From Escherichia coli (lineage in GTDB: Bacteria; Pseudomonadota; Gammaproteobacteria; Enterobacterales; Enterobacteriaceae): a stretch of 64,000 nucleotides of DNA. Positions 1,297 through 22,743 of the stretch are shown one piece after another. The number at the start of each line of letters is the position of its first letter. The stretch's first letter is position 1. The DNA is taken from the NCBI RefSeq assembly GCF_003334765.1, contig NZ_QOWT01000020.1, one strand, 5' to 3'. The notes beneath the pieces are model-generated. The model made no database searches and was not told the DNA's origin. It worked only from the letters and a program-made list of their open reading frames with translations. A program made the position numbers and the translations under genes.

Positions 1297-2937
1297 TTAC
1301 GCGTTTTTCAGAACTTCGCTAACAATCTCAACCGCTTCTTTCTCAATCTGCTTGCGATGTTCTTCACCGAGGAAGCTTTCGCAGTAGATCTTATATGCGT
1401 CTTCCGTGCCTGACGGACGCGCGGCGAACCAGCCGTTGTCAGTCATCACTTTCAGACCGCCAATAGAAGCACCGTTGCCCGGAGCAGCAGTCAGGCGCGC
1501 GGTGATCGGGTCACCTGCCAGGGTGCTGGCGCTCACCATTTCCGGAGACAGCTTAGACAGCGCCGCTTTTTGTGCGGAAGTCGCAGCTGCCTGCAAACGG
1601 TTGTAGCTCGGCGCACCAAAGCGTTTTGCCAGTTCGTTGTAGTGTTCCTGCGGGTTCTTACCGGTGACAGCGGTGATTTCCGCCGCCAGCAGACACATGA
1701 TGATGCCGTCTTTGTCGGTGGACCACGGCGTGCCGTCGAAACGCAGGAAGGAAGCCCCTGCACTCTCTTCGCCGCCAAAGCCGAAGCTGCCGTCGAACAG
1801 ACCATCGACAAACCATTTGAAACCTACCGGGACTTCTACCAGTTTACGGCCCAAGTCGTTGACCACACGGTCGATCATCGCAGATGAAACCAGCGTTTTA
1901 CCGACGGCAACATCTTTGCCCCACTGCGGACGATGCTGGAACAGGTAATTGATTGCCACCGCCAGGTAGTGGTTCGGATTCATCAAACCTGCCGGAGTGA
2001 CGATACCGTGACGGTCATAATCCGGGTCGTTAGCAAACGCCAGATCGAACTTATCACGCAGTGCCAGCAGGCCCGCCATCGCACACTCGGAGGAGCAGTC
2101 CATACGGATCGCGCCGTCTTTATCAAGGTGCATAAAGCGGAAGGTTTGATCGACCTGATCGTTAACGATAGTCAGGTTGAGGTTGTAATACTCGCCAATA
2201 CGCTTCCAGTATTCGATACCGGAACCGCCCAGCGGATCAACGCCCAGCGTCAGGCCCGCTTTCTGAATCGCGGCCATATCAACGATATCGGCCAGACCTT
2301 CCACGAACGGCTGCACCAGATCCTGCTCTTTCACATGACCGGATGCCATCGCTTCGTCGAGGGAGATACGCTTCACGCCTTTCAGGCCATCGGCCAGCAG
2401 TGCGTTGGCCCTGTCTTCCACCACTTTAGTGACGTTGGTATCAGCCGGGCCACCATTTGGCGGATTGTATTTGATTCCACCATCTTCCGGCGGGTTATGG
2501 GACGGTGTAATCACGATACCGTCTGCCAGCGGGCCACCTTTTTTATTGTGAACCAGGATGGCATTGGAAACGGCAGGCGTCGGGGTGAAGCCATTGTTTT
2601 CCTGCACAATGACATCAACGCCGTTCGCTGCCAGCACTTCCAGAACGGAAATGAATGCAGGTTCGGACAGGGCGTGAGTATCTTTACCCACATAGCAAGG
2701 GCCAGTGATGCCGTTTTTCGCACGTTCTTCAGCAATTGCCTGAGCGATCGCCAGAATGTGCGGCTCGTTAAAGCTGTGGCGCGCTGCACTGCCACGGTGA
2801 CCGGAAGTACCGAATTTCACCGCGTGCTCCGCATTCCCTGCTTCTGGTTTCAGTACATAATATTGCGCCGTCAGTTGGGCGACGTTAATCAAATCACTCT
2901 GTTGTGCAGGTTGGCCTGCACGATTGTGGATTGCCAT
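1297..2937 (-). CDS. pgm: phosphoglucomutase
   Basis: ORF 1297..2988; protein recognised from [19 protein letters not shown] and the TSGHRGS / GGPADTN motifs; internal Met chosen to give 546 aa. Confidence 0.95.
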
Positions 2938-5029: not shown

Positions 5030-5560
5030 ATGGCTATCACTGGCATCTTTTTCGGCAGCGACACCGGTAATACCGAAAATATCGCAAAAATGATTCAAAA
5101 ACAGCTTGGTAAAGACGTTGCCGATGTCCATGACATTGCAAAAAGCAGCAAAGAAGATCTGGAAGCTTATGACATTCTGCTGCTGGGCATCCCAACCTGG
5201 TATTACGGCGAAGCGCAGTGTGACTGGGATGACTTCTTCCCGACTCTCGAAGAGATTGATTTCAACGGCAAACTGGTTGCGCTGTTTGGTTGTGGTGACC
5301 AGGAAGATTACGCCGAATATTTCTGCGACGCATTGGGCACCATCCGCGACATCATTGAACCGCGCGGTGCAACCATCGTTGGTCACTGGCCAACTGCGGG
5401 CTATCATTTCGAAGCATCAAAAGGTCTGGCAGATGACGACCACTTTGTCGGTCTGGCTATCGACGAAGACCGTCAGCCGGAACTGACCGCTGAACGTGTA
5501 GAAAAATGGGTTAAACAGATTTCTGAAGAGTTGCATCTCGACGAAATTCTCAATGCCTGA
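5030..5560 (+). CDS. fldA: flavodoxin 1
   Basis: [20 protein letters not shown] flavodoxin N-terminus; internal start gives 176 aa. Confidence 0.95.
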
Positions 5561-5568
5561 TGTGATGC

Positions 5569-5590
5569 GGCGTAGACTCATGTCTACGCC
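5569..5590 (+). terminator. hairpin downstream of fldA (weak, partial read-through likely)
   Basis: GGCGTAGAC-TCA-TGTCTACGCC inverted repeat directly after the fldA stop; no strong T-run. Confidence 0.35.
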
Positions 5591-5595
5591 GTATT

Positions 5596-5625
5596 AATAG
5601 ATAATGCCAATCAAAATAATTGCTA
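5596..5625 (+). promoter_or_regulatory. Fur box-like operator upstream of uof-fur
   Basis: AATAGATAATGCCAATCAAAATAATTGC contains GATAAT/ATAATTG repeats typical of Fur sites; fur is autoregulated. Confidence 0.4.
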
Positions 5626-5769
5626 CAAATTTGTAACTTTTGCTGTTGTACCTGTACAATGTCCCGGTGTTCAAGTGGCCTTGCCGTTGTAAATGTAAGC
5701 TGTGCCACGTTTTTATTAACAATATTTGCCAGGGACTTGTGGTTTTCATTTAGGCGTGGCAATTCTATA

Positions 5770-5856
5770 ATGATACGCATTATCTCAAGAGCAAATTCTG
5801 TCACTTCTTCTAATGAAGTGAACCGCTTAGTAACAGGACAGATTCCGCATGACTGA
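5770..5856 (+). CDS. uof: upstream leader peptide of fur (Uof)
   Basis: 28-aa ORF MIRIISRANSVTSSNEVNRLVTGQIPHD whose stop overlaps the fur ATG. Confidence 0.7.
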   Translation: MIRIISRANSVTSSNEVNRLVTGQIPHD

Positions 5857-6295
5857 TAACAATACCGCCCTAAAGAAAGCTGGCCTGAAAGTAACGCTTC
5901 CTCGTTTAAAAATCCTGGAAGTTCTTCAGGAGCCGGACAACCATCACGTCAGTGCGGAAGATTTATACAAACGTCTGATCGATATGGGTGAAGAAATTGG
6001 TCTGGCTACGGTATATCGCGTACTGAACCAGTTTGACGACGCTGGTATCGTCACCCGCCACAATTTTGAAGGCGGTAAATCCGTATTTGAACTGACACAG
6101 CAACATCACCACGATCACCTGATCTGCCTCGACTGCGGCAAGGTTATCGAATTTAGTGATGATTCCATCGAAGCGCGTCAGCGTGAAATTGCCGCAAAAC
6201 ATGGCATTCGCCTGACTAACCACAGTCTCTATCTTTACGGTCACTGTGCCGAAGGCGATTGCCGCGAAGATGAACATGCGCACGAAGGCAAATAA
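5849..6295 (+). CDS. fur: ferric uptake regulator Fur
   Basis: 148-aa ORF MTDNNTALKKAGLKVTLPRLKILEVL with HHHDH and CxxC motifs. Confidence 0.97.
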   Translation: MTDNNTALKKAGLKVTLPRLKILEVLQEPDNHHVSAEDLYKRLIDMGEEIGLATVYRVLNQFDDAGIVTRHNFEGGKSVFELTQQHHHDHLICLDCGKVIEFSDDSIEARQREIAAKHGIRLTNHSLYLYGHCAEGDCREDEHAHEGK

Positions 6296-6754: not shown

Positions 6755-8161
6755 TCAGAAGATGGTGAATGGTGCGATTACCATAAATTTCACGTCACGC
6801 TCATCCTGGAAGATGTTGCCGTAACCACCGCCCCAGCTTGGGATGTCGGAGTGGTTGTCGTATTCGGTGAAATGCAGTTTGAACATCGTGCCTTTGGCGC
6901 GACCGTCCTGAATGGTATAGACCGCATCCAGGCTGTAGGCAGACTCTTCAATAGTCCGGTTTTTGTCGTAGTACGCATCCGGATTGCTCTGCCAGGTCGC
7001 AGGTTTAGCATCCCATGCGTAAACGTAGGAAGCGCCGATGGCGAAGCCTGGAAGATTCCAGTTTTTCAGGTCATACATCGCACCGAAGAAGACCGCTTTT
7101 TCGCCGTTGGCGTTGAAGTCAGAACGGTTATCCCACCAGATATCCAGGCGACCGTTTGAGGAAGCGTAGGTTGGAGTCATACGTTGCAGGAAGTATCCCT
7201 GCTGACCGTCAGCCTTAACCCAGGTGCCTTCGAGGCGCAAATCCACTACGTCAGCCGCCCAGTAACCAAAGGTCAACGCTTGCAGCCAGGCGGTGCCGTC
7301 ATAAAGGTCGTTGACGCTGCGATCGTCAACTTTATCTCGGGTACCGTAGAACTGGTAGCTGGTGGTTAACGGGCTACCGGCGATATCAAATTTGTAGCTG
7401 GCTTTGGCAAAATATTGATCGATATACCCTTCCGCCTGACCAAATGCCGCTTCCAGTACGAAGTTATTTTTGAAGTCGTATTTCGCCCCAAAGGAGTGCA
7501 GATAATCAACTTTGGTGGTTTTATCGTTCTGATAAAACTCATCCATTTCCAGATGCCACGGCGCTTTGTATTCGTTGGTCCACATGTAGGAGAAACTCAA
7601 CGCACCAGCATCGCCGTAATCAAAATTCGCCCCGGCTTCCGCCCCCTGATAAGTACCTGGCATAAAGCTCCAGTGCGGCGCTAACAGCGTTTGACCAGTT
7701 GGCTGAATGTAACCTGCCCTCGCCCAAACCGGACCGTATTTAAATTTGGCCGCAGCTTTATACAGGCTTATACCGCTTTTGTCGCCGGACCAGTCTTCGT
7801 CATAGGCTTTATTACTTTTTGAAAACGCGATTTCGTTCGGGTGGGAGCTGTCGCCGTTTTCCGCCATTTCAATCGCCGTAAACGCAGCAATATCAAGGCC
7901 GAACATATCAGCAGCATAACCGGACTGAAAATCGAGGTTGGCATTCCAGGTGGAGTGAGAAAGGTTGGTTTTGTATTTGTCGCCGTCGGTAACATCTTTA
8001 CGGTCGCGTTCACGCTGCCAGTAATAGATACCGCCGGTTAAGGTTGAATCGTCGATGAATCCTTCGGCGCGAGCCTCCGGCATTGCCATAAAGCCCGACA
8101 TTGCTGTAACACCGGCGATAGCCAGCGCCAGCGTACTACGTTTGCCACTAAACGTACGCAT
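6755..8161 (-). CDS. chiP: chitoporin ChiP (YbfM), OprD-family outer-membrane porin
   Basis: 468-aa ORF with signal peptide and C-terminal aromatic residue (…APFTIF). Confidence 0.9.
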
Positions 8162-19361: not shown

Positions 19362-19438
19362 GGCTACGTAGCTCAGTTGGTTAGAGCACATCACTCATAA
19401 TGATGGGGTCACAGGTTCGAATCCCGTCGTAGCCACCA
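19362..19438 (+). tRNA. metT: tRNA-Met (elongator, anticodon CAU)
   Basis: GGCTACGTAGCTCAGTTGGTTAGAGC...CTCATAA...GGTTCGAATCC...GTAGCCACCA. Confidence 0.95.
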
Positions 19439-19447
19439 TCTTTTTTT

Positions 19448-19532
19448 GCGGGAGTGGCGAAATTGGTAGACGCACCAGATTTAGGTTCTGGCGCCGCAAG
19501 GTGTGCGAGTTCAAGTCTCGCCTCCCGCACCA
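19448..19532 (+). tRNA. leuW: tRNA-Leu (anticodon UAG), long variable arm
   Basis: GCGGGAGTGGCGAAATTGGTAGACGC...TTTAGGT...CCTCCCGCACCA. Confidence 0.95.
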
Positions 19533-19555
19533 TTCACCAGAAAGCGTTGTACGGA

Positions 19556-19630
19556 TGGGGTATCGCCAAGCGGTAAGGCACCGGTTTTTGATACCGGCAT
19601 TCCCTGGTTCGAATCCAGGTACCCCAGCCA
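19556..19630 (+). tRNA. glnU: tRNA-Gln (anticodon UUG)
   Basis: TGGGGTATCGCCAAGCGGTAAGGCACCGGTTTTTGATACCGG...ACCCCAGCCA. Confidence 0.95.
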
Positions 19631-19645
19631 TCGAAGAAACAATCT

Positions 19646-19722
19646 GGCTACGTAGCTCAGTTGGTTAGAGCACATCACTCATAATGATGGGGTCACAGGT
19701 TCGAATCCCGTCGTAGCCACCA
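19646..19722 (+). tRNA. metU: tRNA-Met (elongator, anticodon CAU), second copy
   Basis: Identical to the tRNA at 19362..19438. Confidence 0.95.
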
Positions 19723-19769
19723 AATTCTGAATGTGTCGAATATGTTCGGCAAATTCAAAACCAATTTGT

Positions 19770-19844
19770 TGGGGTATCGCCAAGCGGTAAGGCACCGGAT
19801 TCTGATTCCGGCATTCCGAGGTTCGAATCCTCGTACCCCAGCCA
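19770..19844 (+). tRNA. glnV: tRNA-Gln (anticodon CUG)
   Basis: TGGGGTATCGCCAAGCGGTAAGGCACCGGATTCTGATTCCGG...ACCCCAGCCA. Confidence 0.95.
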
Positions 19845-21318: not shown

Positions 21319-22743
21319 ATGACCAAAAAACTCCATATTAAAACCTGGGGCTGTCAGATGAACGAGTACGATTCATCGAAGATGGCCGATCTGCTGGATG
21401 CCACCCACGGCTATCAACTGACCGACGTGGCGGAAGAAGCGGATGTGCTGCTGCTGAACACCTGCTCAATCCGCGAGAAGGCTCAGGAAAAAGTCTTCCA
21501 TCAGTTGGGTCGCTGGAAACTGTTAAAAGAGAAGAATCCAGACCTGATTATCGGCGTCGGTGGCTGCGTGGCATCGCAAGAAGGCGAGCACATTCGCCAG
21601 CGCGCCCACTATGTCGATATTATTTTTGGGCCGCAAACGCTGCACCGTCTGCCGGAGATGATCAACTCCGTGCGTGGCGACCGCAGCCCGGTTGTAGATA
21701 TCAGCTTCCCGGAAATCGAGAAGTTTGACCGTCTACCGGAACCGCGCGCCGAAGGGCCGACCGCGTTTGTCTCCATCATGGAAGGCTGCAATAAATATTG
21801 CACCTACTGCGTGGTGCCTTACACCCGTGGTGAAGAGGTAAGCCGTCCGTCCGACGATATTCTGTTTGAGATTGCCCAGCTTGCGGCTCAGGGCGTGCGT
21901 GAAGTCAACCTGCTCGGTCAGAACGTGAACGCCTGGCGTGGTGAAAACTACGACGGCACCACCGGATCGTTTGCCGATCTGCTGCGTCTGGTTGCTGCGA
22001 TCGACGGGATCGATCGTATTCGCTTTACCACCAGCCATCCGATCGAATTCACCGACGATATCATCGAAGTGTATCGCGACACGCCGGAGCTGGTGAGCTT
22101 CCTGCATCTGCCGGTACAGAGCGGTTCCGATCGCATTCTGAACCTGATGGGCCGTACCCATACGGCGCTGGAGTACAAAGCGATCATCCGTAAACTGCGT
22201 GCGGCGCGTCCAGATATTCAGATCAGTTCTGATTTCATCGTTGGCTTCCCTGGCGAAACCACCGAAGACTTCGAGAAAACGATGAAGCTGATTGCCGACG
22301 TCAATTTCGACATGAGCTACAGCTTTATCTTCTCTGCACGTCCGGGTACACCAGCCGCCGATATGGTTGATGATGTTCCGGAAGAAGAGAAGAAGCAGCG
22401 TCTGTATATTCTGCAAGAGCGCATTAATCAGCAAGCGATGGCGTGGAGCCGCCGGATGCTCGGCACCACCCAGCGTATTCTGGTAGAAGGTACATCGCGT
22501 AAGAGCATCATGGAGCTTTCCGGGCGTACGGAAAATAACCGCGTGGTCAACTTCGAAGGCACGCCGGATATGATCGGTAAATTCGTCGATGTAGAAATTA
22601 CCGACGTCTACCCGAACTCTCTGCGCGGTAAAGTGGTGCGTACTGAAGATGAAATGGGTCTGCGCGTGGCAGAAACACCGGAATCAGTGATTGCCCGTAC
22701 CCGCAAAGAAAACGACCTTGGCGTGGGTTATTATCAGCCGTAA
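21319..22743 (+). CDS. miaB: tRNA-i6A37 methylthiotransferase (radical SAM)
   Basis: 474-aa [22 protein letters not shown] with CNKYCTYC radical-SAM cysteines. Confidence 0.97.

Follow-up and report, generated by a model that had tools for sequence, protein, structure and literature searches.

A short open reading frame runs into the first codons of fur in the 64,000-nt stretch of Escherichia coli DNA analysed here (the window), raising the question of what this frame is, and whether its overlap with fur is enough to say that the translation of fur depends on it. The two genes lie as follows.

5770..5856, + strand: uof, the fur leader ORF (sequence, K-12 annotation b4637, K-12 identity, NCBIfam NF011344)
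5849..6295, + strand: fur coding sequence, 148 aa (ORF, annotation, NF006999 at 309 bits)

Read from the sequence and its translation, the leader frame opens with the ATG at 5770 on the + strand, comprises 28 sense codons and closes with the TGA at 5854–5856, giving the product MIRIISRANSVTSSNEVNRLVTGQIPHD. The fur ATG at 5849 is nested in its final codons, CAT GAC TGA (preceded by CCG); the two genes share 8 nt, ATGACTGA, and the first 8 nt of fur carry the uof stop. The preliminary description of this DNA, a 28-codon leader ORF whose stop overlaps the fur start, was exact in coordinates and content.

It is very probable that the frame at 5770..5856 is the leader ORF already known for E. coli fur, uof (‘upstream of fur’), and that it works as published, a judgement made on the two together. 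The locus order is fldA-uof-fur, and K-12 MG1655 annotates uof as b4637, ‘RyhB-regulated fur leader peptide’ (RefSeq). The K-12 gene has the same position, the same 28 codons, the same ATGACTGA overlap and UCA as codon 6, and agrees at every base of the ORF. Between window positions 5040 and 7400 a single base differs from MG1655 (NC_000913.3), at 7261 in chiP, uof and fur being identical. The peptide scores 85.2 bits (E = 1.8e-24, positions 1–28/28) against the NCBIfam equivalog NF011344, ‘fur leader peptide’, for which the cutoff is 71 bits. With a 340-nt query around the ORF the region was found in 5425/5426 complete E. coli genomes, many matches being 100% identical, and among the matches listed each carries ‘uof: fur leader peptide’ and then fur. 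Annotation, family score and zero K-12 mismatches over uof and fur all uphold the earlier claim that the described uof arrangement is fully intact here. The case for uof is this identity with an annotated, experimentally studied gene, rather than ORF statistics. Since 2007 uof has been a textbook case of indirect sRNA control via a leader ORF, and genome pipelines annotate it routinely; the gene is already known and its coupling to fur already reported, and the ORF itself brings nothing new.

The whole window is 99.96% identical to MG1655 652–716 kb, reverse strand. IS5D, which lies between gltI and lnt in MG1655, is absent (at about 27224..27228), and the metT-glnX cluster at 19362..19844 holds five tRNA genes (Met, Leu, Gln-UUG, Met, Gln-CUG) against seven in MG1655, with two tRNA-Gln genes fewer. 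Given the missing IS5D and tRNA-Gln genes, the window comes from a close relative of MG1655 (a K-12-like strain), not from MG1655 itself. At 7261 (chiP, − strand, codon 301) the window reads TGG (Trp) where the K-12 chitoporin ChiP has CGG (Arg).

The step from ‘overlapping’ to ‘so coupled’, which the preliminary description also took, does not hold as an argument. Overlap alone is insufficient because the TGA is forced by the N-terminal codons of Fur, which read ATG ACT GAY: across 80 fur loci, from different Enterobacterales species, a TGA at +5 of fur was present in 77, most of them without a uof ORF. The TGA of ATGA closes the second frame at the fur start, and the third frame is that of fur itself. 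With stops fixed in this way, any upstream ORF reaching fur must either overlap its start or fuse with it. The bare uof ORF is likewise within chance, its frame being open in 21% of mononucleotide shuffles of the 79-nt E. coli leader. There is no recognisable Shine–Dalgarno sequence (SD) for uof, the nearest AGG lying 15 nt 5′ of its ATG, and folding of the long transcript predicts a paired AUG (P(unpaired) 0.09). Upstream of its ATG the uof frame stays open, for 78 codons in all, back to a TTG at 5620 (window 5620..5856). A further ATG in this frame, at 5659, forms part of the distal −10 context TACAATG and would be usable solely on fldA read-through transcripts; this extension is not conserved, just 37 codons being open in E. 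albertii.

The description of uof as a RyhB-regulated fur leader goes back to Vecerek, Moll and Blasi (2007), as cited in PMC7534054 and PMC12683245. According to the published scheme, ribosomes would translate the 28 uof codons on AUG-bearing transcripts and terminate at the UGA at 5854–5856, and termination there, five bases beyond the point where the fur AUG begins (5849), together with unwinding of the leader, would lead to efficient fur initiation. RyhB, made in low iron when Fur is inactive, would pair with Hfq's help at the uof initiation region, and this pairing would block uof translation and leave less Fur. A second iron input is proposed to enter through codon 6, UCA, whose reading would need a tRNA modified by the Fe-S enzyme MiaB.

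5785–5787, + strand: uof codon 6, UCA (Ser; TCA in DNA), from the sequence; MiaB role from PMC7466049 and PMC11448259

Later papers describe uof as a 28-aa uORF at which RyhB blocks initiation and thereby Fur synthesis (PMC7534054), and fur translation as coupled to uof in a feedback loop (PMC12683245, PMC11550727). Mutations in RyhB G44C45 abolish uof/fur repression (PMC6191717). Codon 6 is reported to be read by MiaB-modified (ms2i6A37) tRNA-Ser(UGA), tying Fur synthesis to iron/Fe-S status (PMC7466049, PMC11448259). All sequence features named in the uof papers are present in the window. Here uof translation and its coupling to fur rest on secondary citations, and the sequence is compatible with coupling, having the overlap and an SD for fur that is predicted to be paired; a literature search for uof together with Ribo-RET or Onc112 returned no text mentioning uof. 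In Enterobacter, Kosakonia, Phytobacter, Leclercia and Citrobacter amalonaticus codon 6 is CCA or CCG (Pro) instead of UCA, so that the MiaB link reaches less far than the ORF does. The miaB gene itself, encoding the Fe-S tRNA methylthiolase, lies at 21319..22743 (+), on the strand of uof and some 15.5 kb further downstream, a nearness that is probably coincidental.

Which transcripts could carry the published mechanism depends on the promoters, and the start codon of uof lies within one of them.

5743..5771, + strand: proximal sigma-70 promoter, −35 TTTTCA (5743–5748), 17-nt spacer, −10 TATAAT (5766–5771), 10/12 match
5766..5784, + strand: predicted Fur box, TATAATGATACGCATTATC, 16/19 of consensus

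The proximal promoter is the top promoter match of the region, and its TTTTCA...TATAAT is conserved across Enterobacterales. Its −10 ends in the A and T of the uof ATG, and its predicted transcription start, near 5777–5779, falls within uof. Scored against the 19-bp operator GATAATGATAATCATTATC, 5766..5784 is the sole Fur-box match with three or fewer mismatches in the 64-kb window, where 0.01 would be expected by chance, and the predicted box overlaps the proximal −10 and all three bases of the uof ATG. This agrees with the reported layout in E. coli, in which the Fur box overlaps the −10 of Pfur-a, the uof ORF contains the two fur transcription starts, and +1uof lies apart, further upstream (PMC7867234), and with the distinction drawn elsewhere between an upstream Puof and a Pfur within uof (PMC6191717).

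Because the proximal −10 takes in the uof ATG, RNAs made from this promoter would lack the uof AUG, and their translation would have to initiate directly at fur, relying on fur's own AGGA. Coupling would consequently be possible only on transcripts from a distal promoter (start near 5667, probably OxyR-activated) or on those reading through from fldA, and RNA-seq has described both a uof-fur transcription unit and a longer ybfE-fldA-uof-fur operon. Promoter choice thus qualifies, without contradicting, the claim of a translational coupling between fur and its leader: the share of Fur synthesis that passes via uof depends on the promoter used. A mutant in the uof start codon is for its part a confounded test, as it also hits the proximal −10 and the Fur box.

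The distal promoter and the elements about it are as follows.

5631..5660, + strand: distal promoter (‘Puof’), −35 TTGTAA, 18-nt spacer, −10 TACAAT, 9/12 match
5597..5633, + strand: conserved block, OxyR-type tetrad ATAG-N7-CAAT-N7-ATTG-N7-TTTG, 14/20 of the OxyR consensus

Both distal hexamers are conserved in 19/19 aligned Enterobacteriaceae, and 5631..5660 is likely to be Puof, with a predicted start near 5667 that would yield a transcript including the uof AUG. It was upstream of this promoter, at 5596..5625, that a Fur-box-like sequence had been noted. The resemblance is real and uncommon, 5600..5618 (GATAATGCCAATCAAAATA) matching 14/19 of the Fur consensus, a level that only 11 positions in 128 kb (both strands) reach or exceed. 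The site sits 5′ of the distal −35 over no core promoter element, however, and the best Fur box is that at 5766..5784, with 16/19 and placed over a −10. The Fur-like match is included in a block, 5597–5640, that is strongly conserved across genera and lies directly 5′ of the distal −35. Within it, 5597..5633 shares the window's top OxyR score (14/20, reached by 5 sites; consensus ATAGnTnnnAnCTAT-N7-ATAGnTnnnAnCTAT). OxyR is reported to activate fur, with the E. coli OxyR site 100% conserved in Yersinia, where it overlaps a site centred at −227 from the fur ATG (PMC7867234); in E. coli the centre of the block lies at about −234. On this pattern 5597..5633 is probably the OxyR operator of the distal fur promoter. 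Further upstream, 8 nt past the fldA stop, a 10-bp GC-rich hairpin occupies 5568..5591; no U-tract follows, the next bases being TATTAATAG, and other genera retain a hairpin after fldA with different stem sequences. It may serve as a leaky terminator or as a 3′ stabiliser, either of which would let fldA-fur read-through occur.

Two further features lie within uof, and both bear on how its translation might act on fur.

5801..5821, + strand: conserved leader hairpin, stem UCACUUC/GAAGUGA, 7-nt loop, uof codons 11–18 (folds, covariation)
5835..5846, + strand: fur SD AGGA (5835–5838) with downstream UCC (5844–5846), predicted GGA:UCC pairing

The hairpin folds at −8.5 kcal/mol, and in per-species folds it ends at −28 to −30 from the fur AUG in most Enterobacteriaceae. 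Its stems differ among species (GCUCC/GGAGC, GCCC/GGGC, CGCUCA/UGAGCG). In a covariance-model alignment of 72 leaders, which is itself fitted to the hairpin structure and whose pairing statistics are to be read with that caveat, 88% of cells were paired compared with 32–49% in slid controls, and compensatory double changes were found in 6/8 pairs; 30 cells had changed on both sides compared with 9.0 ± 2.6 in shuffles, none of 500 shuffles reaching as high. Two other approaches were set aside: RNAalifold on a MAFFT alignment recovered just the invariant GGA/UCC helix, the hairpin arms being aligned out of register, and a hand-made hairpin scan had a weak control, 58% of shuffles reaching 5 bp. 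No Rfam family covers the fur leader. The SD of fur is predicted to be mostly paired, with P(unpaired) 0.26–0.27; its GGA (5836–5838) and the UCC are invariant in 64 leaders, which gives covariation no power on this pairing. A ribosome translating uof would open both the hairpin at 5801–5821 and the small GGA:UCC helix over the fur SD, and this opening is a plausible physical basis for the coupling.

The distribution of the ORF among relatives is patchy. A uof ORF occurs in Escherichia, most Citrobacter, Enterobacter, Kosakonia, Phytobacter and Kluyvera; Atlantibacter, Pantoea, Erwinia, Dickeya and Pectobacterium lack it, as Yersinia is reported to do (PMC7867234). The TATAATG formed by the proximal −10 and the start codon is kept in 73 of 81 Enterobacterales leaders, ORF-less ones included, and the frames that open with it end in several ways. 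A ATGACTGA overlap ends 37 of the 73, and 24 stop 5′ of fur. Another 7 finish at an ATGA overlap (in Mangrovibacter, Cedecea neteri, Buttiauxella B2 and others), and 4 (in Buttiauxella, Dryocola and Enterobacter sp. R1) are in frame with fur, giving an open frame of 172–173 aa. A single one, in Enterobacter asburiae, continues into fur out of frame, with 49 codons that reach 68 nt into fur; in this locus (L045, 1501..1510) Fur codon 2 is ACA, not ACT, so the overlapping TGA is lost. The less usual junctions are located as follows.

L021, L026, L029, L048, L053, L055, L064: loci with the ATGA overlap
L056, L057, L059, L062, about 1432..1944: loci with the in-frame fusion

Of 65 distinct leaders, 43 keep the ATG frame open as far as fur, compared with 17.4 expected from shuffles. 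This excess is moderate evidence only, as the third reading frame is likewise open in 27 of the 65 and the leaders are related by descent. Leaders longer by 3 nt (29 rather than 28 codons) preserve the frame in at least eight lineages. Deletions of 1 nt break uof in Salmonella enterica subsp. arizonae, Citrobacter sedlakii, Citrobacter sp. Awk4 and Enterobacter sp. Bisph1, each of these alleles leaving a 16-aa ORF that ends 30 nt before fur, and other indels break it in Klebsiella oxytoca, Raoultella terrigena and Pluralibacter UBA7423. Leaders with a broken uof keep promoter, Fur box, hairpin and SD intact. All four of the 1-nt deletions fall in the hairpin loop, where they are neutral for the RNA, and the hairpin is kept whether or not the uof ORF is. 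With the ORF lost even in Salmonella arizonae and Klebsiella oxytoca, the E. coli mechanism is not to be assumed for other enterobacteria.

The peptide shows no comparable constraint. In the variable codons 6–16 there is no third-position bias (entropy 0.80, 0.42 and 0.70 at codon positions 1, 2 and 3), hence the sequence of the Uof peptide is not under selection, and the C-terminal half of uof is equally conserved at the nucleotide level in species in which the ORF is broken. Both observations, with the repeated loss of the ORF, speak against a function of the 28-aa peptide in trans, for which there is no support beyond the annotation of Uof as a protein family and which we regard as exceedingly improbable.

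The region in which RyhB would act was examined with the RyhB sequence from K-12, the restricted duplex being computed over 5755–5812.

5768..5802, + strand: predicted RyhB pairing region (restricted duplex, −15.9 kcal/mol)

In the predicted duplex RyhB 42–47 (UUGCUC, which includes G44 and C45) pairs with GAGCAA at 5789–5794, RyhB 60–69 with UAAUGAUAC at 5768–5776, spanning the uof AUG, and RyhB 38–41 with UGUC at 5799–5802; unconstrained and restricted duplexes agree in placing RyhB 42–47 on 5789–5794 and RyhB 60–69 on the uof AUG. The energy of −15.9 kcal/mol is unexceptional, 34% of genomic windows doing equally well, and the GAGCAA seed is not conserved, reading GUGCAA or GUGCAU in Citrobacter and Enterobacter. 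In a benchmark paper the published RyhB-uof pairing proved unpredictable in silico and lacked support in up to 3/9 species. Full-length RyhB set unconstrained against 200 nt gave an unrealistic 160-nt interaction, and was discarded, as was a sliding 33-nt RyhB seed, which put 5914–5934 and 5640–5672 above the published region; with seeds ranking other sites higher, energy alone is unable to locate the RyhB site. Pairing at the uof start, as modelled, is compatible with the sequence and would be consistent with a block of initiation.

Two other accounts of the locus have to be set against the published one. Uof might be largely a by-product of three constraints, most Fur coming from proximal transcripts and uof translation contributing little. 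Each end of the ORF, and its second half, has indeed an owner of its own: the ATG belongs to the TATAATG of −10 and Fur box, conserved also in leaders that have no ORF; the TGA is set by the Fur codons ATG ACT GA irrespective of any ORF; and the 3′ half is conserved as RNA hairpin plus SD. For the E. coli leader the probability of an open frame by chance is 0.21. That indels break the ORF in several relatives while promoter, Fur box, hairpin and SD stay intact, that uof has no SD and an AUG predicted to be paired, and that the fur transcription starts lie inside uof all fit such an account. Against it, published experiments report that efficient fur translation requires translation of uof and that RyhB acts at uof initiation, and it sits poorly with the number of open leader frames relative to shuffles, with 3-nt indels that keep the frame, and with the uof-fur and ybfE-fldA-uof-fur units seen by RNA-seq. 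We consider it improbable.

A little less improbable, yet still unlikely, is that RyhB acts mainly on the RNA, pairing with GAGCAA at 5789–5794 and causing decay or direct interference on short and long transcripts, rather than by way of a block at uof. RyhB induction lowers the short fur mRNA (from the Pfur inside uof) in a G44C45-dependent manner (PMC6191717), and the GAGCAA:UUGCUC seed lies 3′ of the predicted proximal start, hence in both transcripts; in the same study the long uof-fur mRNA was not destabilised. Against this, reviews say that RyhB blocks uof initiation, the second predicted pairing block covers the uof AUG, and the seed itself varies in Citrobacter and Enterobacter, as given above. 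The RNA-level route and the block at uof are not mutually exclusive.

For E. coli the published coupling through uof remains the preferred reading. For the enterobacterial fur leader at large it is possible, though we offer this tentatively, that the conserved unit is an RNA and promoter architecture (two promoters, both conserved, the Fur box merged with the proximal −10, a hairpin with covarying stem at −48..−28 and an invariant SD/anti-SD), to which uof would be a lineage-restricted and repeatedly lost add-on. Were that so, the varied ORF endings (ATGA overlap, in-frame fusion, stop 30 nt upstream) would mean that coupling is frame-flexible or dispensable.

Among other known systems, uof-pqsR/PhrS of Pseudomonas aeruginosa (PMC3592444) is close in design: the gene of a regulator is likewise translationally coupled to a short uORF, and an sRNA controls that gene indirectly, by way of the uORF initiation region. 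The two are unrelated in sequence, regulator and sRNA, and PhrS activates whereas RyhB represses; the likeness is one of analogy, not homology. In thrL and ivbL (GcvB targets), and in trpL and hisL, translation of a short 5′-leader ORF also sets downstream expression. The attenuation leaders trpL and hisL differ in that the output of uof is coupling via overlapping stop and start, not transcription termination, and in that uof contains no string of regulatory codons for an amino acid of its own pathway. Neither terminator nor antiterminator was found in or after uof; the hairpin at 5801–5821 is followed by ACCGCUUAGUAAC, not by a U-tract, and a reading of uof as a trpL-type attenuator was rejected, there being no terminator-like site between 5770 and 5849.

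With other Fur-box promoters whose operator lies over the −10, the locus shares the arrangement cited for fur autoregulation (16/19, over the proximal −10). Unlike them, its 19 bp also hold the start codon of a leader ORF, and since operator, −10 and start codon share bases, the three are not independently mutable.
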